Source: Obrimoposthia wandeli (lineage: Eukaryota). From it: a DNA stretch of 64,000 bases. Positions 23,430 through 58,351 of this stretch are shown here, piece by piece (position 1 is the first letter of the stretch; each line of letters starts with the position of its first letter). Below the pieces are notes generated by a model. That model saw only the letters and a program-made list of their open reading frames with translations, ran no database searches and was not told where the DNA came from. A program made the position numbers and the translations under genes. The stretch is taken from the NCBI GenBank assembly GCA_977020255.1, contig CDROCS010003983.1, positions 62,001 through 126,000 of the forward strand. Direction: 5' to 3'.

Positions 23430-23515
23430 ATCAAAATAATGAATTGTATACGAAAAGTGGTAGCTTATATATCATCATACTCAATGCTGATTGGTTAATA
23501 TTTGGCTTATGAATA

Positions 23516-25617
23516 TGTTGGGGTTTCTATATGAAACTTATAGATCCTCTTGAATGTGGAGGGCCCCAACGTGAGTTCTTATAGAAGCAGGACTTAAGGA
23601 TGGTTGTGGCCTACTTAATGTTATAGTTGCCTGTCTCAATTCTTATCTGAAGGTGTTTGTTTTTGATGTTTCTTAGTCTGAAGGGTTTAGAACAATGCTT
23701 TCTAGTTGTAGGAAATCGTTTATTGTTAACACACTAGACTAACACAAAACAATACGTTTACGTACGTATTTCTAAAAAGTGACAGTAAATTCCTAAGACT
23801 TCTGTAAGTCTCTACACAAGTGGGGATGAAGCACGTATCGATTTAATTTTAGGGTGGGTTGGTTACTAGAGTCTTTAAATCAAGGGATAATTTATACGCA
23901 ATTAAGAAACAATTAAACGTAAAATATAGGACGATTATATGAAATTAAAGGATAGTTTATACGAAATTAAGAAACAATTAAACGTAAAATATAGGACGAT
24001 TATATGAAATCAAGGAACAGTTTATACGCAATTAAGAAACAATTAAACGTAAAATATAGGACGATTATATGAAATCAAGGAACAGTTTATACGCAATTAA
24101 GAAACAATTAAACGTAAAATATAGGACGATTATATGAAATTAAAGGATAGTTTATACGAAATTAAGAAAAAATTAAACGTAAAATATGGGACGATTATAT
24201 GAAATCAAAGGATAGTTTATACGCAATTAAGAAACAATTAAACGTAAAATATGGGACGATTATATGAAATCAAGGAACAGTTTATACGCAATTAAGAAAC
24301 AATTAAACGTAAAATATGGGACGATTATATGAAATCAAGGGATAGTTTATACGCAATTAAGAAACAATTAAACGTAAAATATAGTACGATTATATGAAAT
24401 CAAAGGATAGTTTATACGAAATTAAGAAACAATTAAATCTTCCACTTTTTTGTTCACAGTATTTTAATTCTTAATATTTTTACGACTTTTACTTTCCAAT
24501 ATTGCCACGTTTGGCTCTTACCTCCTCCGAATAACCTGGCGTCCGGTCTCGCTATTCCTCCTCAATTGCCGGCAGAGTTGCCCTGCTCGGTTCTCGTCTT
24601 AGGTGTTGTAGTCACACGACTCGGTTCTCGTTTCTGGTGCTGTAGGCACACGGCTCGGTTCTCGTTTCTGGTGCTGTAGTCACACGGCTCTTCCTTGGAC
24701 TCCTAATTTTTTCTGCAAGTCTAGATTTAATTTGGGTTTTGTATCCGGCTGTGTTTGTGACTTACCTTCGTCGGATGGGCCGGCTATTGGATTTCGATAG
24801 TTAATATATCCTCTTCTGTTATTATTTGGATTGAACGGTTTACTAATTTAACCGATTACTGCTTCTGTTATTATTTGGACTGAACGGTTTACTAATTTTA
24901 ACCGATTACTGCTTCTGTTGTTATTTGGATTGAACGGTTTACTAATTTAGCCGATTTACTTCTTGCCTCTAGGATTTGGCGTGAGATGTTCTGCAACGAT
25001 CGAAAAATTTCGTTAGTATTTATATAAATTTACCTTCGTCGCTGTCCAGACGCTAATGGACTTCCTGTTCGTTCCTCCGCGACTCAATTCCGCAGTCTAC
25101 TTGCTGCTTGCTGTTCGGAGGTCCCGATCCCGTTAAGTGCTCTCTCAGACACTGCTAATGGGCTCATTTGTTCCGCTGTTTGGTTCCCAGCGACTCCCAC
25201 AATTCTTCTGACGAGATTTTCCTCCTAACAATAGTTAATGGCAGTTAGCCTAATGTATTTTCTTACCTTGAGACTGGATGGCTGGCGTAGTTCCCAGCGT
25301 CAATGATTCTTCAACTTAATTAACTTCTTAATTATCTTCTCTGTTTTCTTCTTAATTGTCTTCTCTGTTTTCTTCTAAATTGTCTTCTTTGTTTTGTGGC
25401 TAGATCTTTTTGGGGCCCTTTGCTTAATTTTAAACTTTAATATATACTGCACATCACACACGACCTTCGTGGTCCTTAAATATTTTATTACAATTTTAAT
25501 CTTATCAATTCCAATTTTGATATTAAATTTATTTAATTATAACCTTGCTTTCAAGGATTTCTATTTCACTATAAAATCAATTAATTATTTAATTTATTTC
25601 AAAACCTAAACCTAACA
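23516..25617 (-). mobile_element. Solo-LTR-like element X1 (2102 bp) inserted in Polinton A1
   Basis: TGTT...AACA termini, 4-bp TSD AATA (23512-23515 / 25618-25621); end region homologous to X2 (34931-36131). Confidence 0.8.
23881..24437. repeat. 65-bp tandem repeat (about 8.5 units) inside X1
   Basis: TTTATACG recurs at 23891, 23956, 24021 and onward with period 65. Confidence 0.95.
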
Positions 25618-25662
25618 AATATTATATATAGATGGACAGTTATTTCCATTAATTAAATCACG

Positions 25663-26149
25663 AATGTTGTAAATATTAATTATAGAGGTAGAGTTAAAGG
25701 AGACATCAGTCACTTACCCTTCAAAATCGAGAAACCCTGTCAGTACGTGCGCAGGTGAAAGGATTATATTCTTATAATCTTCCGTCCAGGTGTGTTTTAT
25801 AATTTATGTTAGTTAATTATTATTAGGAGCATGCAGGATAATGGGTTGCAAGAAACATATTACTACAACTATGCTCAAGTATCCAGTTAGAATAAAGATT
25901 GGACGTATTCAATCAGTAACGGTTACTGTCGATTTGGGTAAGAAGGTGAACCTATACAAGATGTCTCAAAAGTGTGGAGCTGCATGCATGTTCAAACCTG
26001 AGTTGTTTCCTGCTCCGAGGTTTTCAAAACACAATCCTCTATGTGTCAATATATTTGCAAGCAAAAAAGGGGTCATATTCAGTCTTAAAGATTTGGATTA
26101 TAACTTTGATGTGACTTGGATAATAACTGATATTTTACTTTTGATATAA
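25663..26149 (+). pseudogene. TBP-like gene of Polinton A1, two exons with intron 25790-25826; start frameshifted, one TGA
   Basis: VVNINYRG...ILIIFRP(G)|ACRIMGCKK...IQSVTVTVDLG...MFKPELFPA...VNIFASKKGVIFSLK, matching the two TBP core repeats. Confidence 0.75.
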
Positions 26150-26195
26150 ACAATACAGTTTATTTAGTTGAATTGTCATTCTTATAAACAAATAT

Positions 26196-38652: not shown

Positions 38653-38783
38653 AGTAGGTAGTAGGTAGATCAACTAAACCTAAGTAGGTGGATGTGTCCG
38701 GTCTAATCCACACCCCCCTCCCCCCTTGTCCTTTAAAACCGTGCATGTGTGTGGAGTGAAATTTCGTGTAGGTGTGTGGAGTC

Positions 38784-39085
38784 ATATAGGTCACAGACTA
38801 GCTTGGCGATGTACGGATGTCTCGCTCTCATATAGGTCACAGACTAGCTTGGCGATGTACGGATGTTTCGCTCTCATATAGGTCACAGACTAGCTTGGCG
38901 ATGGACGGATGTCTCGCTCTCGTATATGTCACAGACTAGCTTGGCGATGTACGGATGTCTCGCTCTCATATAGGTCACAGACTAGCTTGCCGATGTACGA
39001 ATGTCTCGCTCTCATATATGTCACAGACTAGCTTGGGTGATGGGCGAATGTCTCGCTCTCGTGTATATCACTGACTACCTTGGGT
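38784..39085. repeat. 46-bp tandem repeat (about 6.5 units) just inside the A2 TIR
   Basis: ATATAGGTCACAGACTAGCTTGGCGATG... at 38784, 38830, 38876, 38922, 38968 and 39014. Confidence 0.95.
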
Positions 39086-39285
39086 GATGGGTGAAAGTCG
39101 ACGGGTGTTGGATGGAAACACCCACCGACCACCACCCGCCCCTTCGGGGCAGGCTCTATTCTCACTAAAATAACTACAATGGGTGTTGGGTGAAAGTCGA
39201 TGGGTGATGGGTGAAAGTCGATGGGTGATGGGTAAAAGTCGGTGGGCGTTAGGCTAGTGGTGGTTCACCACCAACACTACACCCC

Positions 39286-39380
39286 ACAACACCACACCAC
39301 ACTTAACACCACACCACACCACACCACACCACACCACACCACACCACACCACACCACACCACACCACACCACACCACACC
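39286..39380. repeat. (ACACC)n microsatellite
   Basis: Directly visible. Confidence 0.95.
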
Positions 39381-39629
39381 ATTAATTGCCCGCCCCTTTG
39401 GGGCGGGCTTTATTCTCGCGAAAATAACTACAAAAACATGCGCTACAGTATCACTTTACCTCTCACAACTACAAATGTAAACGACCCGTGTCATACCCAA
39501 GACCCTAACATACATACTTCGGGGCGGGCTTCATTCTTGATCTACAGGCACAAAAAACATCGGTCAGATCTATATAATTTAGAGGAGCAAAAACAAAATA
39601 CGAGACAAAATTACTTTTCAAAATATTTA

Positions 39630-40133
39630 TTAAACATAAAACAACATATTGGCTTCACTCAAAGTCCAGAGAGGCTGCATTGTCCCGTCATCAGCAAAAT
39701 ATCCATTCAGACGTATTGAGATATTCCATAGTTCTTCATCTAGAATTGGAGCAATCAAATATCCTAGATCATCTTTAAAATCCAGACTGGGATCAGTTTC
39801 AAGCTCGAAACAATTTCCTTCATATACATAATCAGGAATGTAAAATCCCAAAATATTTTTCCGTTGATCAAAATCAGTTGTTGTTAAAATTTCGATGATA
39901 TATTTTTTCTCCACTTTTGATATTTTCACAGAATTCATAACTCGTATAATTTGATACCTCTTTAATATATTACATAGTTTTCCTTTTGAAATTCTCTCTG
40001 GATAATAAAAATTTGCTACACATCTCTTATCCATTCTAAAATAAGGAAACTGATTAAAAACAATGTTTATAAAAAATACACATAAGATACAAATATTTAA
40101 AAAATAAAACTGATTATTAAATGAAAGAAACAT
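39630..40133 (-). CDS. Polinton A2 accessory protein 2, putative OB-fold/SSB-like (true start probably MDKRCV)
   Basis: C-terminal WNISIRLNGYFADDGTMQPLWTLSEANM; copy at 2404-2720. Confidence 0.6.
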   Translation of the reverse strand: MFLSFNNQFYFLNICILCVFFINIVFNQFPYFRMDKRCVANFYYPERISKGKLCNILKRYQIIRVMNSVKISKVEKKYIIEILTTTDFDQRKNILGFYIPDYVYEGNCFELETDPSLDFKDDLGYLIAPILDEELWNISIRLNGYFADDGTMQPLWTLSEANMLFYV

Positions 40134-40168: not shown

Positions 40169-40645
40169 TTAAAACATAGAAATATGAGCACGTTCAATTT
40201 TCCACATAGGCAACTTTGTTCCCATTTCATCTTTCTTGTAACCATAAAGTCGAATTGTTACAGTCCATTGCTTCTTTTTCGGAAACGCATCAATATCAAC
40301 ATATCTTCCATAGTCATCTAGAAATGCTTCATCGGCTCCTCGGATATAAAATTCGTTCTTATTGAAAGTAGAATTCGGAACTGCCTTTTCAACTTTCTGT
40401 TTAAGATATTGAAAATCAGGTTTTTGAATACCTGATAGATAGTAGCTGAACTTTCTTCTTTCAATTGTCACAGGATTTACTAAAGCAATCAGTTGAGCCT
40501 TCTTCAAGAATCTGACTTTGTATTTGAAATATTGTTTCACTTCTTCATACATATCCTTATCCGATTCTTCAAACATTTCTTCGTCATCGCTTAATACCCG
40601 TTGGCTATCGTCCATCGTTGATAATTGTCTTTGGTATGAATGCAT
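40169..40645 (-). CDS. Polinton A2 accessory protein 1, putative OB-fold/SSB-like
   Basis: Intact 158-aa ORF ending QWTVTIRLYGYKKDEMGTKLPMWKIERAHISMF. Confidence 0.65.
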   Translation of the reverse strand: MHSYQRQLSTMDDSQRVLSDDEEMFEESDKDMYEEVKQYFKYKVRFLKKAQLIALVNPVTIERRKFSYYLSGIQKPDFQYLKQKVEKAVPNSTFNKNEFYIRGADEAFLDDYGRYVDIDAFPKKKQWTVTIRLYGYKKDEMGTKLPMWKIERAHISMF

Positions 40646-40894
40646 TTACTGTGATTTGTCCTCCAATGGCGCATTCTTTTATACTAATTTCTAACAAAGA
40701 CATGAATCTCATTGGTTAATATAACTAAAGCATTGAATTTGATTGGACTAAATCTATATTAAAAATCAAAATTGATTGGAAGAAATATATCATCCAATTA
40801 TAATAGGTTTGCAAGATAATTACAAGAAACGTGCAATAAAAAAGCAGGTTCAGACATATATAAAGAAGATTTTACAGAATACAATTTCAGTCTA

Positions 40895-41391
40895 ATGAAA
40901 CTCGTAAATATAAATTATAAAGGTAGAACAGAAGATGATGTTTCGTACTTACCATTCAATGAATGGAAGCCGAGACAATATGTAGAAAAGTTTGACAATT
41001 TCACAGTTGTTATTTTTCCTACAGGTTAGTTTTTTATTTTCATATTGAATTCTTTTAGGAAATTGTCGTGTTATGGGATGCAAAATACCAATGCTTGGGT
41101 TCAATTTACCATTTGGAATTCGAATCACTGCAATACAATCAATCACGATTTCGGCTAATCTTGGGAAACAGATAAATATTTTTAAAACTGCAGAGAAAAT
41201 GAAAGAAGAATGCATGTTTGAACCAGAAAATCTTTCCTGCTCTCAGTTACTTGAAGTTTAAACCGCTATGTCTAAATATGTTTTCTAGTGGTAAAGTTAT
41301 GATATTGGGATTGAAAAATTTTGATTATCCAGACATTGTCGATTTGATTTTAGAAAATATATCTTATTACATCTTGTTATCTTTTCTATAA
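40895..41391 (+). CDS. TBP-like protein of Polinton A2, exons 40895-41024 and 41059-41391; one extra A near 41229 shifts the frame (about 153 aa when corrected)
   Basis: MKLVNINYKG...FTVVIFPT(G)|NCRVMGCK...IQSITISANLG...MFEPE(I)FPAL...LNMFSSGKVMILGLK. Confidence 0.8.
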
Positions 41392-41727
41392 ACAAACATG
41401 TTTAAACTTATTGTTTTAAATTAATAATACTATAAATAGAGACAATGAAGTGGATCATCTTGCCGACGAAATATTTTCTGGAAAAATTAGGGGTAAAGAA
41501 ATTTTTATCAGAATTAAAAAATAATGATATAACAAGAGATAACATTGAAATATTGGTTAGATCACACGTTATTCGAGAATTTAGAAATCATACACAAATA
41601 AATAAAATTATAGCCAAATATTAATTTTTTTTTTGTATTTCATCTACAATAGCTCTAACATAGTACATTTCAATAAGGAAACTTCTATGATAATATAAAC
41701 AATATTAAAAATGAAAGAGTATATGCA

Positions 41728-42376
41728 ATGGATCTAAATAATAATGCTGTATTTCAAATAGTTGGTCCCAGTGGAAGTGGAAAGACACATTTCATATGTA
41801 AATTGTTGCAAAATGAATCTAGTTTCAAATCTAGTTTCAAAAATATTTATTGGCATCATGGTGGAGGAGGGGAAAGCGGATTAACCAAAACAGAAGTTTG
41901 CAAGTTGAAGGGAATACAATTTATTGAAGGATTTGATGCAAATTCGTGTGAAAGATTGAAAAAAGAAGATAAAAATAATAATTGATGATTTGTATCAGGA
42001 AGCTAACAAGGAATCGGACTTTAATAATTTATTTACAAAGATTGCAAGACATCGTGAAGTAACAGTTATATTTATCACTCAAAATCTGTTTCACCAAGGA
42101 GGTCACCATAGAACAAGAAATCTTAATGTACATTACTTAGTTTTATTTAAAAATCCTAGAGATCAAACTGTTGTAGATTTCTTGGCCAGACAGGCATTTC
42201 CCCAAAATAAGAACTTTCTAGTTGATTCATTCCACGATGCTGCTAAACAAGCACATGGGTATATATTTATTGACTTTACACAAGCTTGCCCAGATGATTT
42301 ACGTGTTTTAACCGATATATTTAATTCTAAGGGAGTAACTGTTTATAAACAAATAGAGAACAATTATAAAAGATAA
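41728..42376 (+). pseudogene. Polinton A2 packaging ATPase (FtsK/A32-like), one frameshift
   Basis: Walker A GPSGSGKT, Walker B IIIDD, FITQNLF, FKNPRD. Confidence 0.9.
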
Positions 42377-42535
42377 ATTTACAATGCCTTTTAAGAAGTT
42401 GATAGTAAAACGTAAAGAAAAGCCTAAGAAATCAAAAAAAGAATCATTAAGAAAAATGAAGTGAAAAAATGAATCAAATCCGTAGTTAGAAATAAAAAAA
42501 AATTTAAATGGCTTCGAATATAAACAATATTCAAA

Positions 42536-42883
42536 TTGAACCTTTTTATTAAAATGAAGAAAATACAAAGAAGCATACCCTATTTTAAAGCTTTAGTTAA
42601 AGCCTCTTCTAATAAGAAAATGATTATTCTTAAAGCATTTCCATTCTTTGTTGTAGATGATTTATTGGAAGTTTTGTATAATATAGTTTTAGGTCGAGTA
42701 AAAGTTAGAAAACGGAAAACTATATTAAAGAAATACAGAAAAACTCTTCTAGATATTGCTAATGTAAAAAATAAAAAAAGGAAACGAAATATTATTCTTA
42801 AACAGAATGGTGGTTTCATAGGGGCTGTTATTCCAGTTGTTGCTTCATTAATCAGTAGTATTATAGCTGCGACAAGATCATAA
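42536..42883 (+). CDS. Conserved small Polinton protein ending KQNGGF + hydrophobic helix
   Basis: IILKQNGGFIGAVIPVVASLIS; homologues at 1560-1870 (-) and 61740-62050. Confidence 0.7.
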   Translation: MNLFIKMKKIQRSIPYFKALVKASSNKKMIILKAFPFFVVDDLLEVLYNIVLGRVKVRKRKTILKKYRKTLLDIANVKNKKRKRNIILKQNGGFIGAVIPVVASLISSIIAATRS

Positions 42884-42969
42884 ACAATTATTTATAAAAT
42901 CAGCTAAAGATATGGGTGCTAGCCCTTCTTTACCTAAACTTAAATTTTCTTTCTATTCAAATTGTTGTA

Positions 42970-43996
42970 ATGGAGAAGATATGGTTCAATCCAAAAGATC
43001 CAATTGGCTAAACAGGAGTTTCAAAATTAGCAAAAAGAACAAAACAAAAATACAAGAAAACGCAGAAATGGCTGAGCGACCAGTTAGCCTACAGTCTGAA
43101 CAAGCTGATAAGAAGAAGGTTTCCAACTAGAGCTTACAAAACCAGTTGTCCTAATAATTTATGGCAAATGGATTTGATGGAGATGATCCCATATTCTTCC
43201 ATTAATAAGGGATATCGATATATTTTAACATGTATTGATGTATTTAGCAGGTTTGCTCGTACAATTCCAGTTAAAGCAAAGTCTTCAATAGCTATGCTTG
43301 AAGCCATTAAAGAAATATTAAAAGAGAACATTCCACAAAATGTGCAAACTGATTTAGGAAAAGAATTTTATAATAAGCAAGTTCAATCATTATTTAAACC
43401 AAATAATATAAATCACTACTCTGTGTTTTCACAGTACAAAGCAGCTGTAGTAGAAAGATTTAATCGTACTTTAAGAGATCGAATAAAAAAGTATTTCACA
43501 AAAGAAGGAAATGAAAAATGGGTCCAAGTTTTACCTAAAATAATACATGCATATAATCACTCTGAACATAGAGGTCTCAAGGGAATGAGACCTATTGGTG
43601 TTACTAATAAAAACTCTATGGATATTTGGATGGACAGCAAAAAAAAGAAAATATTAAAAAGCTAAATATAAGAAAAACGAATATGTTCGAATTTCGAAAA
43701 TTAGCTCTACTCCATTTATTAAAAACTTTGATCAGAATTGGAGCGATGAAATATTTTGTATAAGTAAAATTGATCAAAAGAGTAATCCAATAATGTATAC
43801 TATTAAAGATGCTGACAATAATATCGTTCACGGTAAATTTTACGAGCAAGAACTACAAGTAATATCAAATAAACCTAGCGTTTTCCGTATTCAAAAAATA
43901 TTAAAATCTAAGGGTACAGGTAAACATAAACAATACTTTGTTAAATGGCATGGTTATTCAGACCCAACTTGGATATCAGCATCTAATATAATATGA
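42970..43996 (+). pseudogene. Polinton A2 retroviral-type (DDE) integrase with C-terminal chromo-like domain
   Basis: MEKIWFNPKD, WQMDL, QTDLGKEF, VVERFNRT, YFVKWHGY; one stop near 43008 and a frameshift near 43660. Confidence 0.92.
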
Positions 43997-45036
43997 ATTC
44001 GATGTATATGGTTTTACCAAGTAACGGATGTCCGAAGACTCAACCAGATAATGACGCTAGTAGCTTTATTATCGATTGGGAAAATTCTATAAATCTCCAA
44101 GGAGAATGGGAAGCGGCTTTAACAGAATTTTCTTTTATTATTCTCCAATTACTATCAGAAAAAACGGACATATTTCGTTTACAAAAGAAGTTGATCATGA
44201 AAAATCAATTGAAGTTGTGATCGGGTTTAGTAGTAAAGGTAAATTCTATTACAATTGTATAGATAAAGAAGTGAAAGTAATATTTGAAAAAAACAAAGTC
44301 AGATTTAAAAATCGAATAAAACATTTTAAACCTATTCAAATTATATTCGACTCTGGAAAAGAAGCTCTTCAATTCGATTTTGACAGTGAACATGTAGTAG
44401 GTATGAAGAGATCTGATATAGCCTCATCTAAATCGGTTAAAAATGTTCCTGATAGAGTAGCAAGAGTGTTTTTAGTTGAAACGAGACCAAAGTATGTAGT
44501 GGAACTGAAAATGTTTTCAAAAGATTATAAAATAGATAGTGAAGTGAATTTCTGTAAATTAATACAGAAGGAATGTAGTGAATATTTGAATAAATGGTAA
44601 ATTAACGTTTACAGTAAAGAGCAATATAAAACGAGTTTTATTTGATGATAAACTCGCTAAAAACCTTGGTTTAAACAGTAATACCTTTGAAACCCATACA
44701 ATAAAAACCATAAAAGCTAAAAATAAGGCCAAACTTTTAAATGCTGTTAATCATTTATATATTTATACTAATTTAATAGAACCAACGCTTGTAGGAGGAC
44801 AGTGAGTTCCCCTTTTGAGAACAATATGGATATCTAAAAATGAAACTAAAGATGGAGACGCTGTTGGTATGTGTATAGATCAACCAATGTATCTTCCAGT
44901 TTCTCTCTTTTCTATAAACAATATTGAAGTAAATATTAGATATGATTCCAGACAACTAATAGATTTCATGTACGGGGCTAAGACAAGTTTAACAATACAT
45001 TTAAGAAAACAAAATGTCGAATCCAGCAATAATTGA
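43993..45036 (+). pseudogene. Polinton A2 penton/minor capsid protein (frameshifted)
   Basis: MYMVLPSNGC...LQGEWEAALTEF; C-terminal PMYLPVSLFSINNIEVNIR...LTIHLRK. Confidence 0.8.
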
Positions 45037-45370
45037 GGCTTATAGTCAAAGCCAGCAGGGTGGAGAATTACCATATTTTGTTGGAAAACAATATGGATCT
45101 GGCTGGCTTAGAACATTAGGTAGATTTGTCTTTCCTCTTTTAAAGAGACTCGGGCGATTTATATCAAAATTAGGAAAGGATTACCTTTCATCTAAGGACA
45201 ATAAACTAATACCAACTTTTAAGAAGCATGCACTTGATGAACTTGATAATGTTTTACCTGAAGTTGCTAATTTGATTAGAAAACGTAAATCAAATAAAAG
45301 CTAAGGAGGTAGTGGATTTAAACGCAAAAAGAAGCAACAAATTAATATAAACAAACGTAAGAAAGTTGAA
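45014..45370 (+). pseudogene. Polinton A2 PX-type protein
   Basis: YSQSQQGGELPYFVGKQYGSGWLRTLGRFVFPLLKRLG. Confidence 0.8.
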
Positions 45371-45387
45371 GGAACAATATTTGCAAA

Positions 45388-46112
45388 ATGAGTTGCGCTA
45401 AAACCGAATTGTGTATTTTTGATAAACTACTTCCACAAGTAGTTGTAGATAATGCTTCCTTTGAAGAAATATTTTTAGTTAACTCAGTTTCAGGAACCAC
45501 TTTAACCGATTTAGAATTTAATATTAATGGTTCCAATAGCGAATATTTAGATTTGAATGATACTTTGCTTTACGTTCAAATAAAAGTATTAAATCGAGAT
45601 GGTACTAATTTAGAGGAAAATGCCGATGTAACACCTGTAAATTATCTCTTTAATTCTTTATTTAGTGATGCTATTGTTACTCTTAATAATGTCAAAATTG
45701 AAGGCGGAAATCCTATGCTCACAAAGCTTTGATTGAAAGTCTTTTGAATTATAGTACTGATACTCAAAATACTAATTTGGCAACAATTGGTTATGATAAA
45801 ACGGATACAACTCACAAAGAATGGATTGCGGGTTCTAAAGCTTACGAAATGTGGGTCTTTGAGATTGAATTTCTTTGAACAACCGAAATATTTAATTCCC
45901 GGTGTTAATGTACATCTTCGTTTGAAACGTAATAAATGGAATTTTTCTTTGATAAGCACGGACGTTCTAAAACCTAGACTTGATATTTTTTTGATATTTA
46001 CGACTAGAAATTAAGTTCAATGCAGCTTTAACACATCCTACTACGGGGCTTATTTACGGAGTGTTTGATTCGGAAATACAAATCAATAAAAACAGAACTG
46101 TCATATTATAGA
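45388..46112 (+). pseudogene. Polinton A2 hexon/major capsid protein with internal deletion near 46005
   Basis: MSCAKTELCIF...LEFNINGSNSEYLDLNDTLLY...FFEQPKYLIPGVNV, then jumps to C-terminal LIYGVFDSEIQINKNRTV. Confidence 0.85.
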
Positions 46113-46495
46113 ATGAAGTAAGACATTTTTTAAATTTTAATATTTATTAATTTTTATTTAGTTCAGTACAAGTACAAGAATCAGCAGAGAAGGTCTTGGG
46201 TGATAAATTCAATGGAGTTTATCCTATTGATATGATTCCATTTTTTCAATCTCGAGGTTACATTATTAATACTCATACTTCGAATTTACCAGGAGAACAT
46301 TGGATAGCTATTTATGTTAGAGAGTGGACAATACATGTATTTGAACCACTTGCAATGTATTATCCACACAAACTTGTTTCAACTATTCAAAAAGGACGAA
46401 GAAGAGTATTTTACAACAAGATACAATATCAGGATCCTGCGACGAGAAACTGTGGACATTTATGTATTTTATGGTTATCGTTGCAAAACGATTAG
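46113..46495 (+). CDS. Polinton A2 adenain-type cysteine protease, two exons (intron 46118-46161)
   Basis: M-N|SVQVQES...FNGVYPID...IINT...PGEHW...QYQDPATRNCGHLC (His/Gln/Cys catalytic motifs); splicing restores the frame and the MN start. Confidence 0.85.
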
Positions 46496-46758
46496 TGTGT
46501 TATAAAAATAAATATTTGTAATGTTTTATTTTTAATTATTTTTTTAAAATCCCTAAAAATTATAAGGTAAAATAATAAAAGACATAAGACGAAATATTTT
46601 TTAATAAATTTATTAAAAACAACATCACAATGAGATCTGTCAGCAAAATAAGGTCCATCCTAAAAAATGTATTGAAATAACAAAACGTTAGAGTCAAGTT
46701 GCCATAGGGATCTAAAATTAAAAAAAACTAAACTAAAAAAATCAAAAATGAAAACAGT

Positions 46759-46827: not shown

Positions 46828-49668
46828 ACAGGATCGGACCAAGTAACATATAGGGACATGTTACACAGCTTCGATGATAATGGTAACGAACTGGCAAGCC
46901 TATACAATGCATGCATTGACGAACAACGGACTCCCGACTCTTGGCGAACCTTCAAGACTAAGTTCATCCCAAAACCTAGGAAACAGCGCTACGATGACAT
47001 CACAGCTTGGCGACCTATCGCAGTCATGTCATGCGTTTACAAGATATTTGCGTCAATCATCACAAGACGGATGAGTGATTGGGCCTGGAAGAATAAAATA
47101 CTGGATCCACGACAAAAATATCTTGGTGCCTACGAGGGGTGCTATGAGCACAACACGGTGATTAGCCTGATCACCTCGGAAGTATTGCGAAAGAGGAACC
47201 AAGGCTGCGCCTACATCGCCTTCCTAGATCTGGCCGATGCCTTTGGATCGGTGCCAGTCTCTTTCATTTGGGGAATGCTGGAAAGAATTAACGTGGCCCC
47301 AGCCGCTATCAGACTGCTTGAAGATGTATATAAGCAGAATATGACCAACATTGTCTGTGGTGACAGGAAAATCAACCGGATCCCAATAAAACGAGGAGTG
47401 CGACAAGGGTGTCCACTATCGATGCTCTTATTTAATATGAGCATCAATCCGGTAATAGAGGCCACAAACCAAAGCCATGGCTCAGGATACAGATTTGAAA
47501 CAGGTGAAGAAATCCGGACCCTGGCATACGCCGATGACCTTGCACTCATATCTAGCTCCAAAGAAGGACTCCAGGCCCTGATCAATACCGCTGACAAGAC
47601 TGCGAGTACACTACAGCTGACATTCCGGCCCAGCAAGTGTGGTGTCCTACGAATACCTTACAGGAAAGACAAACCAGCTGACAATCTCATGTTGAGAGGA
47701 GAAAAAATACCAGAGGTAACTGCGGACACGCCATACCGATACCTTGGCAGCGACAGGACTGCAAACGCCAAGCAACATTGCGAGGAGCTGTTGGCTGAGG
47801 TGCTTCGACTGACCACGGCAGTGGCAAAAAGCGAACTAAGACCGTATCAAAAGACTGACGCATACAATACCTTCATTCACTCAAAGCTGATATTTGTATT
47901 CAGACAGGGAAACCTGGTACACTCCCGCTTATCCTGCAACCGAACAGACGAAAGGGGCTTCGAAGGACTCCTAAGGAAAGTCATAAAACCAATCGCGGGA
48001 CTAGACTTAGCCAACAGCCCTATCGGAGTTCTCTATGGGCACAAGGACCGTGGAGGTCTTGGGCTGACAAGGATTGAGGACGAATATAACATCCAGTCCA
48101 TCATCCAGACGATAAAGATGGCAAATGCACGCGACAGGGACCTGAAGAACCTATTTAGGCGTGAGCTCACTGAACAATTGAAGTTTCCTAATCCGCCAAT
48201 GACCTTCTCCGAAGCAGTTCAGGGGTTTAATGAAGGGACCCTAGCCACTAACATGAAAGATACGGGACTTTGGACGCGGCTGTTCTACGCGGCCAAGAAA
48301 TTCCAGAATGAGCTAAATATCAAACTAGAACTGATTGAGAAGGACCAAGCACTCAATCTTTTCATAACCAGCGACCATGGAGGCAGTTTTCTCATGCAGT
48401 TCAAGACCTACAAGGCCACAAGTAAGGCGATGCATAACATTGTGCAACTCAGCCAGAGTCACAAGGTTCTCGAAGACAAGCTAGCGAGTCCAATATATAA
48501 GAACGCCACATCAGACACAGACATTAACCGGGCCATCATGAAAGGCTGTCTGACGTACCGAGGGTGGTTCTTCATCCACCGCGCAAGGTGCGGGCGCATG
48601 AAGGTACGAGGCCCCAGGACTGATATGATCGCCCCATGCAGGAAGGAATGCCAGGAGCGAGAGTCGATGAGCCATGCAATCGTTGGTTGTAAGCTCATAG
48701 CAAAACTACGAATTCAAAGACACGACATGATCTGCCGAGAAACTGCAAGGGTCATGGAACTAAAATATCCAGGACAGGTAACTCAAGAGCTGACCCACTT
48801 ATGTGTAGACGATAACGGAAACAGCTGCAGACCACGACCAGACATAACGATCGAGACTGACTATAAGGTGATGCTGATAGAGATCAAGATCCCGTTTGAC
48901 TCTGACATGTCATTTGATCTGAGGCTCACCGAAACTATGTCCAAATACGCGGAGCTCGTTGAAATGCTAAAGACCCGCCACCCAGAAAAACTCGTGCAAC
49001 TCTACGCGCTAAGGATCGGGACCCTCGGCTTCTGGCCTGAAATCAATAACCGGATCTTTGCAAATGCTGGTTTTAAAGCAAAGGAAATCAAGGATATCAA
49101 GATCCGACTAACCCTGAAAACCATCGAACATACAGCGGCCTCGTGGGCTAAATTCTCGAGTCATACAACTGGGATCCTGGATAAGTTGTCAGCCGAGGAG
49201 CTGGAGAAGATTGAGGCCTGGAACTACGTAAAATAAAAAAAACAAAAAAAAACAAAAAAAACAACAACCAACAACAACCAACAACCAACAACCAACAACC
49301 AACAACCAACAACCAACAACCAACAACCAACAACCAACAACCAACAACCAACAACCAACAACCAACAACCAACAACCACCACCCAACAACCACCAAACAC
49401 CAAACACCAACCAACAACCAACAACCAACAAACAACAGCAGATTCGTGACTGCCGAGGGGCCCAAAACTGTACCCGGCGATGACGTAATAGTACTGAAAA
49501 AGTACGCGGACCTACTCAAAGTTCCAATGACGAAACCGAGACCCCAAGCAGCTACTGTTACTGCTACCGAGGACCAGCAGCATATTGAAACCCGGACCTA
49601 CGTAAAGTAGAAGAGGCCCCTATGGGGCCTTTGAGAAATTGATTGCGTTCACATTAATAAATGTTTGA

Positions 49669-49707
<39 letters not shown>

Positions 49708-49708
49708 A
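46828..49708 (+). mobile_element. 5'-truncated non-LTR retrotransposon with RT and restriction-like endonuclease (NeSL/Utopia/R5-like); ORF to 49236; (TAAA)n tail
   Basis: WRPI, FLDLADAFGS, GVRQGCPLS, AYADDL, YRYLG; CCHC CRKEC-x7-H-x4-C, RHD, PD...IEIK, KYAEL, GTLGFW; ORF is uninterrupted. Confidence 0.92.
49237..49440. repeat. A-rich and (CAACCAA)n microsatellite in the retroelement 3' UTR
   Basis: Directly visible. Confidence 0.95.
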
Positions 49709-52700
49709 ATTCTCTACCGACATTATTCATTTTTGCACTTCTATTATATTTATAATTAGGAACTCGCAATTATATTTTAGGTACACTCCTCAACTATTTC
49801 CGGGCATTTACCAGCAATGAATAGGGGAGAAAAGTTAGAAAAATGAAAATCAGAAAATCCAAAGGATTTACGATTTGTTCATTACTTATATTTAGAAGAT
49901 TTATTCATGTATACAAGATATTTATGAACAAATATTCTGGGTAGGATATTTCCAGCTTCTGATTACATAACACTCCTCTTCACTATTCGAACTTGCATTT
50001 ACATCCATTCGATTATCCTGTTGAGGATTCCTCTTGAAAACTGAATTGGACTGGACTCATAAAATTCTATTATTCAAAATGGGCTTTAGTACTGCTTGCT
50101 ATTCTTGATTCTTTTAACTTGGTCTTTTTTAACAAGCGCCTTTTCATTCACTTTAAATATCCTTCATTATCTAACTTTTCAGCTGTGATTTATTGGTTCT
50201 TCCTTACGTCTAAAATTGTTTGTTGTGCACTTAATGTTTGAATTTTTCTTTTTCTTCTATAAATGACCTCAAACTGTGAATGTTTTGAGGAGCTGTTTAC
50301 TGCATTTATGAAAAAAATCAATTTGTGGCAATAAATGGTTCCACATTTTCCTGTTTTTTGTCTATACTCTATTCTTGTAACAATCATATATCTTACCGTG
50401 CGTATAACTCTTTCTGCTAGACCGTTAGCTTGGTGTTGATAAGGTGCTGTAAGCTCTTGTTCAATACCAAATTTTCAATGCCAATTCTGAAAATAATTTC
50501 CAGTAAATTTTTGAGCTTTATCTGTTACAATGCTCTTAGCATTCCCAAATTTATATATCCTATTTGTCTCGAGGGTTTTAGTAATTGTTATTTCATCTTC
50601 TTTTGTAGTTGCTGATAGTGTTATCAGTTTACTAAATCGATCGATTACTATTAATATTTATTTAGATCTTCTTTCCTTGTGGGCTATACCGTCAACTATT
50701 TGATCTAAAAAATTCTTTGACTATAAAAATATATTTATTTTGTTCTGAATGTTTCAATTTTTCTTTTGGGACTGAAAACGCTTTTTGATATTCATTCTTT
50801 TATTTCTTGAAACATTCCTTTTAATATAAATTATCTTTCATATAGTTATAAACCTTTTGCATTCCTAGGTGACAAAGATATTGATGAATTTAATTAACGT
50901 TCTTCGAAGGTACAATAATTAAATATGTAACATTTTGTTCAAGGATATCATCGCAGAGTTTAAGTTTCTCTTTTATCTGATAAATCCAACTTCTTTTGCA
51001 TTCTTCTGATAAATCCTTACTTTCCAGTTGGAGGAAAACTTTCATTTCTTTCACATGAATATCTTCTTGTTGTATTTTCCTTATCTTACCCAAGAAGTTG
51101 TCTTCATTTAGTGAGTGAATATATCGTAATGGGTGTAGGTTTAATGCGAATACCGTGTAAAGTCTACTCAGGTTTGCGTGCGAGGGTTACGAGGGTGTAG
51201 ATAATGCAGAATAAATCAACGAACAATATTAGCTGAATAAGTCAAACAGCAGTTTAAAAATGTTCTTTTTATTCGAGAAAATCGTACGTGGGCAGTTACA
51301 CGGTATTGCATAATAGCATATATAGTTGAAATATAAATTTCCCCCCAATTAATCAACATGTTTTTGCATGCGTATCAATGAAACTTGCTTTCTTTACGAG
51401 GTTAGAAAATGGAATCAATACATTTATATATGCGACAGGGATCAGATGTGAATATACAAAATCTATTGTACAAATGGCACCGAATGTGTTCTTGTTTCAC
51501 AAAAATTCATTTAAGCTCATTTACGGTTTTGGGATTTCATGCAAACTGCATGTGTGTAAAATAGTGCAAAATTCACATCTGGTTTAATGCATAAATCGTG
51601 TGAGGTTTAATAGTTCTCAGACAAATGAAATTGAGAAACTGTTACATGATTACGAGTTCTTTGTGGCGTTTGTAGGTTGTTAGCTGTATCTGAGGTTTGA
51701 AACCGCTGACTTTGTCCTTTGAAGTCGTAGTTAACAACGATGGACCAAGAATATTTTTAATTCGATTCGAGTGTTGTACAATCGAGACATTTGGAATTAC
51801 CTCTCAATATAAACATCCTCTATTGAGTCAGGCTGGCTACTGTCGATTTCTCTAATTTAAGGAGTTGTTCTAAAATTAGGCGTGTATGACCGATTCCATT
51901 TCATGACGATTTATTTTGATAAACAATTATATCATGAACCAAAATTTCCAATTGTTGATTGTGAATTTTATGATATTTTTCCCATCTCCCATTTTTTCAA
52001 TTACCTTTACAACAAATCAGTCAACTCAAATTAAGGACCGGTTTCTAATTCGTTTATTTTCGAAGTTAATTTTCCGAGCTTTTGGAAGAAAATATCACAA
52101 CAAGATATATTTAATCAAGGTTTTGTTTGACTGTATTGATAAAAAGAAATCGTATCACATTTTACCACAAAATAAACAAAAGTCAAAATGTATAATTAAC
52201 GTTTATAAAACCAAAATTGATCTATTCTTTTCCACTACCCCCAAAATCTTTTTAGGAAACTTTTGTATAGCTCCTTTATGTCATTTCAAGATAACCTATT
52301 CCATTCTTTCAGTGCATTCATAATAAAAATGATTGAGGATCTTTAAGCAGCATTAACGAAGGTAGAGGGGGAATAGCGATGTCATTTATGCATATTCATC
52401 ATCCTTTAGAGACAATAGACACCAAGACCAGCATTCCACACCAAAAGACAACAACCCACACATTCACAACCTCTGCCAGGACGTAGGTCCCTTTTGCCGT
52501 AAACACGTCTAATATTAAATGACAGTTCGGACCCATGACGAGGGTAGGTTGCCTGTCATTGACCATTGATCACCACCATAACTAGATGGTCACAGTTTTT
52601 CGAGGTGTGAACGGTTAATGGGCTTTAGACAGCGGACGAGTTCTGTCACTGTAGTATGGCTGTTGACAATGGTATTTAAATTAAACAATTTAGAGTATAT

Positions 52701-54575
52701 TTAACAACGTGTAACATATTTTATGACAGAAGTTTGAGTTTTGGAATCGATTGATGCATATGATTACGTCATTTAATTAGAATTCTCGGAATAGAGTATA
52801 CTTCGGCGACTTTCTAGCACTTCCCCATTGATTTTTCCAATGTCAAGTGTGAGGAGCAAAGAAAAGGAGATGATGCTAAGCTCGTTTTGTATATTTTTGT
52901 TAAAAAAAGTAAATTATATTGAATGTTTTTCAACTTTTTTTCTAATGCTTCTGATCTTTCTAATAAAGTAATTCTAACTTATTATTTGAGATAGTTATTT
53001 TAAATGATTCAATTGAAAATATAGAATTTCTGTCATGTTCAAAATTTATATTCTCAGTTCTCGTCTATGATCCGTAGCTTATCTAAAGAAAAAGTGGAAT
53101 TATGAAAAAGCAGACAAGCGCTTTTTACACAGAAAAACGTAGAATTTAAAACAACCATACATTTTTTTAATCGAAGCCATCAAAATCTTCATCAGGTTCA
53201 ATATCAAAGAGATCAAACACTTAATTTAAATATTCTGGTATTTCAGATTCAATTGGTTCTTCGGATTCTTCTTCACTAGCAGTGGTATGAGATTTCACAA
53301 TTGTTAGCACTTCGGTTGGATATTCACAGACATTAGCGGATTAAAATCCATTTTCAATGCACCATACTTCGATCCATTGACGTACTTGACGAGCTCTTTT
53401 CGGCACCGACAGCAGCGATTCTCCATATTCTTTGTTTTAACAGACTTTGGTTGTATCCGTTGCTGGATGCTTGACTCGTCTGTTTCAAACTCTTAAGCTG
53501 CCGTCGCTGCATTGTCATAGCTTTCAGCAGAACCTACAACTTCAGTTTTTCGGCGATTCGAATAAGATTTTCGAGTCTTTGTTATGTCACAATTTCAGTC
53601 CATTCCAACTTGAGTATTCACTGATTTTTAAAATAGATCTTAATAAAAAAAATATGAAATATTTAGAATATGTTTAAAATATCCACAGTCAAAAGATAAA
53701 AAATGTTTCGAAACCAAAATGCCCTATTTACTTGAATGAACTGAAGTTTAAAGATTTGAAAAACAAGAAACTTACCCTGTAATAATTAATTTTCAAACAT
53801 TTTTATTGCACAAAATCATATAGTTTTTGGTCTGGTTGTGTCCATTAGGTGGTCTATAGGCAAGAACTCAGGGTATTTTGAAGGTATTTTCAACATTACA
53901 CACGCAAGAACAGTTTTTCATTTGATTTTATTAGTGTTGGGTATAGAGAATGGACAGTGGGGACTTGAATACATTTTCGTTTTAATACCAAAATAATGGT
54001 ACTTTTTTTACATGGTTTCTCGAAATCTTCACCTTCCATCTGGAGGTACTGGTGAAACCTTTCAGGTGAATCTCTCAAAGCTATTCTAATCATAGCCGTG
54101 TCAGTGTTCTCAATATGTAGCGCAGTTACGACTCTCAATTGACTGAGATCGTTGTTTTTGTCCAGGCCAGTAGATCATTTGTCGCTAATAGAACCACAGC
54201 CAGTAGTCGGCAAGTGTCAGGTCTGGAGTGCAAGCCTACCTTCTACGACCGAGCAATCTTCTGCCGACTGGCGTATCCATAATCTTCATCTCGTATCGCC
54301 GGTTCCCACTGGACTACAAATGGATATTAGGTATTCCTATTAAATTGGGCCACTTGAACGAAGAAAGCCACACGCCATACTCATTTAATGTTTGAGAACA
54401 AGTCGAATACGTTACATCCCACAACTACCAACCATCTTTTACCAGATAGAACTGATCTCAATGTAAAGAGCACCGTCTTGACTGCTTGTATTGGTTTGAT
54501 ACAAGAAAGAGGTTCAGTTCTCCAAATGAGAGAACCTTCTAATGTTGTTTTAAACTTATTTTCTTGTTATCGCAG

Positions 54576-57318
54576 AAGCATCCAGCATCACGTCCGAGAG
54601 TGCTCAGTCCTCAAAGTCTATTGCCAAGCAGCTGAAGGTCAACAATGGCTTCAAGTTGGAGAAGCACGTCAAGAAGTCTATGAAAGATCTCGGTCTTTGT
54701 TATGTGGATCTTCCCTTTGTCTGCAAACTGGAGCCTGCTGCCAATCCGAATACGGTTAGTGCACTTTCTCTTTCTGTACTTCTGTATGAATGGAAGAGTG
54801 ATTGAACGAATGTATGATACACTCAAAATCTGAATTGGCACACGATCTGCTCAGTTGAAGGCCACACACCGCGGAAAGAACAAAACACCATGAATATAAA
54901 TTTGACTTATTAATATGAACATGTAATAATGATCTCTTTATATTAATTCCATTGCCCTAGACTACTGGACTGGTAGACTACAGACATATGTCAATGCTCA
55001 ACAGAAAATAGTATTGACTTCATACATTCATACACATTCATTGTCATATGTTATGTAAATTATCTTAATGGTCTGTCCTATGTTCATATACTCTGACAAA
55101 TTAGGAGAAAACAATATCGTGTTTTTATGTAAGTAGCGGCAACCTAGGATAATATTTCAGAAGATGCTACAATAAAACGAGTGACATTTTTATAATTGGG
55201 ATCATTGAATTACTTTGTAGACTTAAAAAATCAAGATAAGCTAAATTTTGTTACTTTGTATTTCATAAATCTTTACCGATTTTGTCACATTAAAATCTAA
55301 TCATATCTTAAAAGAAAGGTCAGCTGATTTAAGATGGTGCAATCCTTTGAGATATATTTGAGTTCGAGACAACTAATTAAGGAGTTTGCTCTAATGAGTG
55401 TGGAATTGTATGTGACATTTGCCGCTGCTGCTGTTTCAGAAGAGTGAAGAGGAGGGCATCGCCCGAAGTGGAGAAGCGGATATTATTGATCCGATAGTGC
55501 TGACTGATGGTGACTATGTGGAGGTGCGCGTACCGGAGCCGGGGCAGCGAGTGAGGAACACCAAGATGGAGGTGCAGGTTCGCGGTGATCGTGGAGTGCG
55601 GGCTGCTCTGGGTCGCAGACAGGCTGAGTTGCGTCTAATCAGTGAGTCCAATTTGGGCATGCTGCGCCGTCTTCTGCTGGCTGCCAGGAGGGACGTGCGC
55701 CGGCAAGCTGTGGAGAGACGGCTGGCAGTGGCGGATGCGGATGTGAGTGCCCACACTGCAGCACAACACGCCACACAAATTTCTAGTGCACCACTGCATT
55801 ACAATACAACACATAAATACACTGCATCACACCCTACCACTAGACAACAATGCAACACACCAATTTCTCCACAATTTATAACACACTTCCATACTGCACC
55901 AAACTACGTAATGATATATCACACTGCATCATGCATAAACACACTGCACCTTTATGCATCACGCACTACCACTGGACTACACTGCACTTCACTACCGATA
56001 TTGCTCCACAATATATAGCTCCATACTGAACTACACAGCACCATACTGCACTACATCACACTGCACCACATTGGACGACACTGCAACATACTGCATCTCA
56101 TTACATCTGATTGCTCCACAATATGTCATATACCACCACATTGCATTACGCATAACCACACTTCCATACTGCATCACAATATAGCACACAATTACACTAC
56201 ATTACACACTACTACTGGACTACACTGCACTTCACTACCGATATTGCTCCACAATATATAGCTCCATACTGAACTACACAGCACCATACTGCACTACATC
56301 ACACTGCACTTCACTGCACCACATTGGACGACACTGCAACATACTGCATCTTATTACATCTGATTGCTCCACAATATGTCATATACCACCACATTGCATT
56401 ACGCATAACCACACTTCCATACTGCATCACAATATATCACACAATTACACTACATTACACACTGCTACTGGACTACAGACTATCAGACTGCATAACACTG
56501 CACCACACTGCATAACACTGCACCACACTGCATAACACTGCACCACACTGCATCATACTGCACCACTCTGCATCATACTGCACCACACGGCATAGCACTG
56601 CACATCACGCACTACCACTGGACTACACTGCACTTCACTACCGATATTGCTCCACAATATATAGCACACCTCCACACTGAACTACACAGCACCATACTGC
56701 ACTACATCACACTGCACTTCACTGCACCACATTGGACGACACTGCAACATACTGCATCTCATTACATCTGATTGCTCCACAATATGTCATATACCACCAC
56801 ACTGCATCACAATATATCACACAATTACACTACATTACACACTACCACTGGACTACAGTGCACCACTACATCACACTGCACCACACTGCATCATACTGCA
56901 CCACTCTGCATCATACTGCACCACACTGCACCACACTGCATCACACTGCACCACACTGCATCATACTGCACCACTCTGCATCATACTGCACCACTCTGCA
57001 TCATACTGCACCACTCTGCATCATACTGCACCACTCTGCACCAGACTGCACCACACTGCATGGCACTGCATCATACACTTCCACACTAGATTGCACTGCA
57101 CCACACGCCATTGCATTCGATCTCTGAATCACTACAATTTATCTGTGAACATTTGCCGATGTGACATGCAGGTGATTGAGGCCTACAACGTCATAGAAAG
57201 TTATCGACCTTCCCATCGTCAGCCACTCAAGAAAGATCGGGACGCCGCCTTCAAGGCTTTGAAGGAGCGCCAGAAGATCCTGAAAGAGCTAGAGTTACTG
57301 GACTCAGAGTTCTTCTAG
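54576..57318 (+). pseudogene. TADA3: Duplicated TADA3 exons 7-9 (54576-54754, 55440-55742, 57172-57318); no 5' exons
   Basis: Splice sites and frames intact; one visible E>K change in the exon 7 copy. Confidence 0.85.
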
Positions 57319-58351
57319 CAGCATTTACTTGTCTCAATAACGGCGCCTGAGATCTTGAGCGCGGGTTTTAATTTTGTTTATAATTGTTTATACGACACGT
57401 CTCTCTCGCTTCCTCTTCTTTACCACCCAATCACTCAATAAGCACCCGCTGTAGCTATGTCGAACGGGGTTGCAAATCTCTTGTTCTCATCGCTGTAAAG
57501 ATGTTCACATTTACAAACCACTTCAGCCAACAATATAAGAGAGGTCTTGGAAAGGATTTGTGTAGATTAGCTCTGTTATATGGGAAATGTGTGAAGTTTA
57601 AGAATTTGACCTTTCAAGCATTCTAAATATTGTTCTTGTATCTTCTTGTCTCATCTCATAATCAGTTGGAGAAATAAATATGAATGGAGAACATTTTGAG
57701 GCTGAATTTAACGCCAAAACAACAACGAAAGGTGCAAATGTAATATTACGCCATCACAAAACATAGTCGGAGAATTCGATTAAATCGATTTTAATGAAGA
57801 GTAAGTCAGTGAAATCGAATGCTTAGCTTGACAAATTATTGGTTTTGAACAATTCCTTATTGGGCAACAATAAATATCATTACAACGATCTTCTCAATTT
57901 TATGTACACATTACCGAATAGTGTTGTCGCTTTCCAATGTTTCTGTCAGAATTTCTTCTTTTATCATTTGTTTGGCCCTCTTTCACTTTCCACTGCATTT
58001 TATCAACTGTTGTCGCTTTCCAATGTTTCTGTCAGAATTTCTTCTTTTATCATTTGTTTGGCCCTTTTCACTTTCCACTGCAATTTATCAACACTACCCA
58101 GAAGTTTATGCAATTTTCCTAAGTAACTATGATATCTGAATGATCATTTTCATAATTCAAAAGCAGCACTGAATATTACAAAAACCATGCTGGTACAGCA
58201 ATAGCAACTAGAAGGACAAAACTAGTTTTTACTCAATATCACATATGCGTAAATGCTTTTTGTATTTCATACTTCAAAATAATTCACAAAGTGAAATTTT
58301 TGAAAATTCTATTTTTTTATGTTTGTATCTGTGTCCTTTATTCAATTAGAC

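Follow-up and report, generated by a model that had tools for sequence, protein, structure and literature searches.

The window, a 64,000-nt stretch of DNA from Obrimoposthia wandeli (contig CDROCS010003983.1, positions 62,001 to 126,000 of the forward strand), carries on its plus strand a TBP-like gene that extends from an ATG at 40895 to a TAA at 41389–41391. An earlier note on this DNA, made from the sequence alone, had read it as a Polinton-encoded gene in which removal of a 34-nt GT-AG intron and of one extra A leaves about 153 residues with two TBP-type repeats. The gene, its surroundings and a second TBP-like gene elsewhere in the window are listed below.

~25664–26149, plus strand: second TBP-like gene, lineage B; the same intron site is occupied, by 37 nt (25790–25826); exon 2 has an open frame, exon 1 is broken
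38653–39400, no strand: AGTAG repeats (38653–38664), then 46-nt and CCACA tandem repeats; likely left end of the element
39630–40071, minus strand: second F1-like ORF; YATAAACR box at 40064–40071, 37 nt before an ATG
40169–40645, minus strand: first SSB-like gene, of family F1; Atlas scores of 0.85–0.87 make SSB a weak lead as a label
40646–40894, no strand: putative divergent promoter region of host type; for TBP, TATATAAAG at 40857–40865 and an Inr-like TCAGT at 40887–40891
40895–41024, plus strand: TBP-like gene, exon 1; 43 codons and 1 base; strand S1, shortened first stirrup and the strand with the F116-equivalent Phe
41025–41058, plus strand: putative intron, 34 nt, GT-AG, phase 1, inside the Gly codon of IFxxG
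41059–41391, plus strand: TBP-like gene, exon 2; end of repeat 1 and all of repeat 2; frame break at ~41227–41232
41387–41394, plus strand: YATAAACR box, 58 nt upstream of a 59-codon ORF; it overlaps the TBP stop codon
41694–42379, plus strand: box (41694), 34 nt before the ATG (41728) of an A32-type packaging ATPase, which lies in two frames here
42519–42883, plus strand: box (42519) and, 35 nt downstream, the protein-X/mu-like core gene (42554–42883)
42879–43996, plus strand: box (42879) and, 33 nt downstream, a small ORF at 42912, then an rve+chromo integrase, broken here
43925–45304, plus strand: boxes at 43925 and 44913; F16 and F17 genes, F16 being a likely minor capsid gene by its position
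45346–46534, plus strand: box (45346), 42 nt before the ATG (45388) of the likely major capsid gene, which is broken
46169–46534, plus strand: adenain-like protease, after the likely major capsid gene
46858–49236, plus strand: intact ORF of 792 codons for a non-LTR retrotransposon RT, inserted immediately beyond the PolB region of the element, on its 3' side

Exon 1 stops one base into a Gly codon, the splice-site dinucleotides are GT (41025–26) and AG (41057–58), and the junction is placed at 41024/41059, where the note had it. Copies with an open exon 2 imply ~153 codons (43+1+109). The TBP-repeat motifs quoted in the note are present, in three frames as described, and the lesion that it suspected at an A run around 41229 is a frame break at ~41227–41232. 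This break is common to the window copy and two others (L002 and L003); 33 of the 36 family-A copies read through in one frame. Judged from the sequences, it is probably an inherited lesion, and a recurrent homopolymer error may also be its source. The frame-broken window copy probably makes no full protein. The pieces of the window gene give weak Pfam TBP matches (E 0.012 and 0.013, below the cut-off), and its exon 1 aligns to the N-terminus of the intronless-family profile with a probability of 98.8. The analysis confirms that the gene and its family are real and that the local copy is broken.

Exon 2 of the second TBP-like gene matches Pfam TBP with 25.7 bits (E 1e-5), above the cut-off of 22.9, and is 47% identical to exon 2 of the gene at 40895–41391, from which it is separate in lineage. 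The earlier note had placed the TBP gene, in each of two element copies, head-to-head with a pair of SSB-like genes and directly upstream of the run from ATPase to protease. At 40895–41391 the SSB-like genes do lie upstream on the minus strand; the ATPase run does not follow directly, because a 59-codon ORF (41445–41624) without a Pfam match intervenes. The statement on two element copies is true only in part: the lineage-B gene has no ATPase directly behind it, and the family-A copy at 749–2724 has no TBP. The latter copy is inverted and internally deleted, with the PolB end, the protein-X gene, the ATPase end and part of the SSB-like gene kept. In addition, a ~10-kb stretch is duplicated within the window (13641–23380 and 49699–59930, 87–98% identity) and ends in part of a lineage-B Polinton; the duplicate at 49699–59930 skips the TBP gene, joining 23380 to 26156.

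Polintons have terminal inverted repeats and a 6-bp target-site duplication. The AGTAG repeats at 38653–38664 presumably match the terminal AGT motif of these elements and would mark the likely left end. By its gene content, the element is a Polinton/Maverick of the adintovirus type, with ATPase, integrase, protease and capsid-like genes in the window and PolB after the protease in copies L169 and L171. A relative of the likely major capsid gene gives a weak Capsid_N match; the homologue search returned no named relatives of the MCP, and IMG/VR scans with the ATPase, MCP and PolB alignments returned no relatives. Elsewhere in the assembly (L168–L169, C1609:74001–94000), two family-A parts are inverted around a PolB gene, and a second TBP/SSB-like block is joined upstream of PolB. 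Apart from the motifs listed for TBP, the divergent region 40646–40894 holds a minus-strand TATA (40676–40683) and five CCAAT/ATTGG boxes (40663, 40711, 40742, 40775 and 40794).

A search with lineage-B exon 2 retrieved 42 proteins of 87–170 aa, all with a precomputed PF00352 assignment, and 37 near-full-length homologues (~145–170 aa) form the alignment used throughout. Its profile matched the TBPs in the PDB with an E of 1.5e-24 and, in a set of representatives at 50% identity, 58 clusters with E ≤ 1e-30; intact homologues score 57–65 bits against the Pfam TBP cut-off. The AF2 model of one homologue, P0003, has a pLDDT of 95.2, Foldseek with this model returned TBP structures at all of ranks 1–44, and the model aligns with TBP over 149 residues (Z 13.7, rmsd 2.8). 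These data point to the two-repeat TBP saddle fold (PF00352), to which the window exons are tied by profile matches, and bear out the note's assignment by both profile and fold. In a tree of 69 rows and 112 columns, the 53 family rows split on a long branch (support 98/88) from 16 cellular, host and giant-virus-like rows, with most inner forks unresolved. Five distant matches from an IMG/VR scan with TBP (25–32%) fall outside the family in the tree.

Surveyed in metagenomes, the family gave 71 loci, of which the 62 strongest (L036–L097) were used and nine weak ones dropped. The TBP gene recurs in Polinton-like contigs: 29/62 loci carry one or more hallmark genes (ATPase, protein X, integrase, capsid-like, protease or PolB), most of the others being short. 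Its commonest neighbour is the SSB-like family F1 (22/62 loci), small ORFs without assignment flank it, and no neighbour family is common to every TBP locus among the 62. Accessory genes in TBP-bearing Polintons include those with ubiquitin-conjugating E2, RING finger, LRR, KilA-N, C2H2 zinc-finger and PLA2-like domains (loci L042:225–719, L085:13315–13893, L066:1918–3327 and L094:7136–7993). The SSB-like gene of several metagenomic Polintons has an apparent short GT-AG intron just before the called ATG, the ORF labelled F8 looking like a first exon (among L036–L065, for example L045:1788, L048:576, L053:665 and L065:1479). Furthermore, five GTDB contigs of bacterial MAGs (L197–L201) carry Polinton-type gene sets (ATPase and integrase; in some PolB, capsid or TBP) and are probably eukaryote-derived contamination.

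The O. wandeli assembly, which is AT-rich and comprises 1.35 Gb, gave 1703 candidates for TBP gene DNA, 40 of which were scored and are 96–100% identical. The family-A set consists of 36 copies, 30 from the DNA search (the window copy included) and six from a second search, and both GT and AG are kept in all 36. Seven further family-A stretches (L111, L149–L152, L159 and L160) were set aside, being picks of a protein search that favours altered junctions; six of the seven have a splice site lost or replaced, hence GT-AG is kept in 37/43 overall. In L160 (C2335:183400–185000), the intron is replaced by short pieces from both flanks, with an exon1-exon2-like junction before the old acceptor; from its sequence, this is likely a templated repair and not a retrocopy.

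Within family A the intron varies from 34 to 39 nt by non-triplet indels (30 copies), and across the 36 copies introns have 55 indel events (+1, +4, +5, +6, −1) and exons seven, the break site not counted. Clustering at 85% identity gives six TBP lineages in the assembly. Five of them have an intron of 34–40 nt at the identical position, with one copy deleted to 15 nt and one having a GA donor; the sixth (L107-type) is intronless, with open frames of ~150 codons. In the 62 metagenomic loci the site is contiguous in 56 TBP genes, as well as in L083 by inspection, and the intron is in none. Intronless homologues are continuous across the junction, and removal of the intron therefore restores colinearity. 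The host TBP genes have introns of 47 and 48 nt, none at the Polinton TBP site; thus, the Polinton TBP intron is host-like in length, and its site was not inherited from host TBP. With its GT-AG ends, restored colinearity and host-like length, the 34-nt segment is best read as a spliceosomal intron, in keeping with the earlier note. Four runs of one sample behave as DNA contigs, with only DNA-type deletions and no splice joint among the 15 joints listed (1868 more exist). The six intron-bearing tree rows require two changes, and 44% of bootstrap trees have one; the intron may go back to a single gain. Between lineages, exon-2 dN is 0.22–0.50 and dS ranges from 1.17 to saturated (10 pairs). Young family-A copies have a pN/pS of 0.57 and five stops, which suggests that they are mostly decaying.

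The intron would account for intron-blind gene callers missing or truncating the TBP gene. Fourteen homologue representatives (e.g. P0148, P0154–P0156, P0171 and P0172) begin exactly at the Met of a CRxMG motif, and may be exon-2-only calls from intron-bearing copies elsewhere or plain truncated calls. TBP-family genes of at least four kinds are present in the host (L137–L143; contigs C238, C60, C1092 and C968): C238 has a pair of canonical paralogues that lie head-to-head, two divergent copies without introns are nearly identical to each other, and a further gene lies on C968.

Residues are given in yeast numbering, taken from the 1rm1 alignment and transferred manually through motifs; from residue 31 on, hhalign agrees with this map, and the repeat-1 map is hand-made, without superposition. 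F116, F190, F207, E186 and E188 are kept in 37/37 homologues, P191 in 36/37 and N69 in 35/37. The three kinking Phe that the note had recognised are among these; by the hand map, the F99 position is a Lys in 30/37 (Pro otherwise seen), with a Tyr or Trp one place earlier in 11/37, and one of the four intercalating Phe is probably lost. The family has, in addition, conserved changes at positions that face DNA in TBP: V71N, V122R, T124M, N159S and I194R in 37/37, L205N in 36/37 and V161T in 34/37. A wider set of 101 sequences, a few of which are probably cellular, has V122R in 91, T124M in 96, L205N in 97, V71N in 63 and I194R in 72, with E186 kept in 93/101 and E188 in 98/101. The TBP positions that face DNA are described, in part, in the accessible sections of PMC12529657.

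The first repeat is shortened, as the note had remarked. Thus, the G125-to-E186 spacing has a median of 47, against 59–61 in six cellular TBPs; the segment with N-lobe helix H2 is ~13 residues shorter and forms a gap in hhalign; and the P0003 model has no long H2, just a 3-residue helical turn. According to the accessible part of PMC7221094, C-lobe glutamates of TBP are the contact for TFIIB, and H2 residues of the N-lobe that for TFIIA, TAF1, Brf and Mot1. Sequence and model suggest that the family is without the H2 basic patch for the latter four, and the kept glutamates of the C-lobe stirrup predict a contact with TFIIB. There is no multicopy TFIIB in the O. wandeli assembly, where 29 candidates gave 12 PF00382 (TFIIB-family) matches, compared with 1703 candidates for TBP gene DNA. 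None of the 71 locus proteins scanned is a TFIIB at Pfam-type similarity, a level that a very divergent TFIIB could escape.

The earlier note had advised a search for a motif common to the upstream regions of capsid-module genes, and one was found. In windows of 70 nt upstream of the ATG, de-duplicated at 80%, a box precedes 18/18 ATPase genes (shuffle control: mean 1.3, maximum 6 in 1000), 12/15 protein-X genes, 6/9 MCP genes and 2/45 TBP genes. The flanks extend it to YATAAACR (Y in 74/77, R in 75/77). The late group has ATAAAC in 76/120, as against ATAAAT in 16 and ATAAAG in 2, and the early group has the box in 8/92, the grouping having been drawn partly after the motif was seen. Some structural genes are largely without it in the tested windows, namely the protease after MCP (0/4), the integrase after a zinc finger (0/4) and F17 (1/6). 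The distance from box to ATG peaks at 33–38 nt, versus 35–55 nt for canonical TATA. The latter is present in the upstream interval tested for 16/45 TBP genes, and for 14/14 in lineage C, and some neighbouring genes have it too; a TCAKT-type initiator stands 25–30 nt behind canonical TATA in 15/27 cases and behind the box in 1/54.

Sorted by junction, the box is found in 13/13 any-to-ATPase, 16/16 ATPase-to-protein-X and 2/29 any-to-TBP intervals, and downstream of TBP in 9/9 TBP-to-ATPase and 1/8 TBP-to-F15/F18/F4 intervals. From these counts, the box belongs to the downstream gene. Three other identities were considered and ruled out. First, a polyadenylation signal does not fit a box that tracks the downstream gene. 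Second, a forkhead (FOX) site, whose consensus is of the GTAAAC type, does not fit, as GTAAAC occurs in 4/120 and the box itself, which is strand-specific, in reverse orientation in 0/120. Third, a codon constraint does not fit, as the box is kept in two frames of upstream genes with different residues.

YATAAACR occurs 52 times in the 64-kb window against 17.8 expected, and the element around the TBP gene has eight plus-strand boxes 20–58 nt before an ATG. At 42340–42351, within the 3' end of the ATPase gene, the box lies on both strands as a palindromic overlap, which is seen in other copies too. Sixteen hand-picked TBP-bearing loci, from the 29 with hallmark genes, have 125 boxes against 33.9 expected. 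The controls were 18 loci found by integrase or ATPase, with TBP in L197 only; this locus, found by its ATPase, has three boxes against 0.8 expected, which precede its ATPase, protein-X and integrase genes. In twelve Polinton-like loci where TBP gave no match, 17 boxes stand against 20.3 expected; these loci are partial contigs that represent about four groups, of which three are GC-rich (0.51–0.56), with true TBP absence uncertain for most; one of the twelve, L187, has eight against 4.1. Five more distant loci without a TBP match have 14 against 17.6. The box and the TBP gene may co-occur only since one clade has both.

We propose, as a reading that we consider fairly likely on the basis of sequence and model, that a minimal Polinton TBP of ~150 residues, made early, reads YATAAACR and recruits host TFIIB and Pol II, which would make it a late-gene switch. 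Host factors would fire the CCAAT/TATA/initiator region 40646–40894 both ways, so that the SSB-like gene and TBP are expressed early. The element TBP would then bind YATAAACR ~35 bases before the packaging and capsid genes, with the kept E186/E188 docking host TFIIB and Pol II without TFIID, while a TBP without the N-lobe H2 would escape TFIIA, TAF1, Brf and Mot1. The box deviates from the consensus by its C at position 7, in the 3' half, and it is this half towards which the remodelled N-lobe would be turned. As far as the accessible part of PMC12529657 goes, the C-lobe proline reads position 1, and the DNA kinks at steps 1–2 and 7–8 (PMC10005294); it is from this geometry that the N-lobe would come to face C7.

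The note's inference that the element carries its own basal transcription factor is supported by these sequence and model data. Of the two roles that it had offered, that of a late-gene activator gains circumstantial support from the shared box before capsid-module genes and the kept TFIIB glutamates, and that of a dominant-negative TBP mimic gains little. A broader proposal is that a widespread Polinton clade runs a one-protein early-to-late cascade, in which a single TBP combines DNA binding with a host-TFIIB dock, reads YATAAACR and is blind to TFIID, TFIIA and Mot1; here we are slightly more doubtful than confident.

One alternative, which we regard as unlikely, is that the box is a weak TATA for host TBP that fires only after DNA replication, the element TBP being a decoy or repressor that ties up TFIIB or blocks promoters. 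In one plant assay (PMC10005294, Table 4), activity with host-type TBP on TATAAACG is still 27%, and a cellular TBP was crystallised on the C(-25) variant, going by the title of PDB 1qn3; a viral reader would then not be strictly needed. The 27% cuts both ways, motivating a dedicated reader and keeping host TBP in play. Furthermore, the probable loss of one Phe, together with invariant TFIIB glutamates, would suit a TFIIB sponge too. A decoy, however, would have no need of seven near-invariant DNA-face changes, and a weak TATA could vary, yet ATAAAC dominates over ATAAAT and ATAAAG; nor is the box enriched in loci without TBP.

Alternatively, the element TBP might bind the box and work through another adaptor, either host Brf and Pol III or an element partner as in the late complexes of herpesviruses and poxviruses. 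Brf1/2 too use the C-lobe glutamate (PMC7221094, in its accessible part), and the small ORFs beside the TBP gene would offer candidates for a partner. We find this rather improbable: what the protein has lost from its N-lobe is the surface that binds Brf, the target genes are long and protein-coding, the assembly has no multicopy TFIIB, and no neighbour family is in all loci. In a further reading, to which we give a slim chance, box and TBP are unrelated marks of one Polinton clade, another factor reading the box and the TBP-fold protein serving in replication or terminal-repeat binding. The frequent SSB-like neighbour would agree with this, as would the divergent Giardia TBP, which in the partial source at hand prefers single-stranded DNA, and the control groups are few; against it, the TFIIB-binding glutamates are invariant and the box sits at TATA distance from ATGs, with the polyadenylation and codon explanations ruled out. 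Finally, a captured host TBP fragment or pseudogene without a role in the element, which the note had considered in the form of a fragment confined to one Polinton copy, agrees with both window copies being broken and is hardly credible given the many copies in several lineages, the 58 clusters and metagenomic Polinton-like contigs, the long branch that parts the family from cellular, host and giant-virus-like TBPs, the host genes without an intron at the site and a dN far below dS between lineages.

The production of Polinton particles and the switching-on of their capsid genes are a long-standing question. A dedicated factor with a matching box brings capsid-gene control within reach of tests that take one small protein and one short oligonucleotide; if the late-switch reading is true, a natural homologue would prefer YATAAACR over TATAAAAG. 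The box would also provide a way to annotate late genes. If our reading is right, the family is a natural experiment on which TBP surfaces are needed to start Pol II, and on retuning of the DNA face for C7. It would further be evidence that Polintons control virion production themselves, with an intron that the switch gene gained in this host and that five lineages have kept.

Compared with cellular and archaeal TBPs (PF00352), the Polinton protein shares the two-lobed saddle and keeps F116, F190, F207, N69, P191 and E186/E188. It differs in size (~150 aa against a core of ~180), with H2 and part of stirrup 1 gone, in the replacement of F99 by Lys or Pro, and in a conserved polar DNA face instead of a hydrophobic one, at ~25–27% identity. 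With three of four intercalating Phe and no apparent H2 patch, it is not a canonical eukaryotic TBP.

Herpesviruses, poxviruses and giant viruses are known to encode TBPs (PMC12529657 and PMC7221094, accessible parts). With the herpesvirus vTBPs (KSHV ORF24, EBV BcRF1 and HCMV UL87), the Polinton protein shares the TBP fold, a polar DNA face and a variant TATA before structural genes, and the reading of a variant box by a polar DNA face has a precedent in KSHV ORF24 (PMC12529657, in part). ORF24, as far as the same source goes, is a large multidomain protein in a six-member complex that binds Pol II directly, is without the TFIIB glutamates and reads TATTWAA. The Polinton TBP is unlike it in being a bare core with the glutamates kept and YATAAACR as its candidate box; it is not a herpesvirus-type vTBP, yet by analogy it likely works like one.

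Many Nucleocytoviricota and poxviruses encode RNA polymerase. Their TBPs, which are also among the BFVD matches, have like the Polinton one lost the eukaryotic N-lobe regulatory signature; the TFIIB glutamate is ~40% conserved in them, and almost all such viruses carry their own TFIIB (PMC7221094, in its accessible part). The Polinton TBP differs from these in its invariant glutamates, in that no element TFIIB was found in the loci scanned, and in belonging to a small integrating element. The word polinton is absent from the text of PMC7221094.

With adintoviruses, Mavericks and Polintons as described in the accessible part of PMC8502044, the element shares pPolB, an rve-chromo integrase, an A32-type ATPase, protein-X-like and capsid-like genes and adenain. 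Figure legends of this paper (Starrett et al. 2021) and its preprint, as accessible, bear a 'TBP' label for MELD viruses; the parts examined contain no analysis of a TBP protein, box or intron beyond that label, and the readable text of the animal adintovirus maps and supplement is without it. In the literature searched, which left most subscription papers and Repbase outside its scope, these two are the only works to link TBP to Polinton-like elements. The earlier note had left open whether the gene was undescribed: the label precedes us, while no study of the family, box or intron was found within the same scope. New here are the intron that five lineages share while a sixth is intronless, the tests of junctions and initiators and a first TBP-less control. 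If the proposed switch is true, it would amount to an orthogonal promoter system run by one protein, unlike the multi-protein complex of herpesviruses and the TBP-TFIIB pairs of giant viruses.
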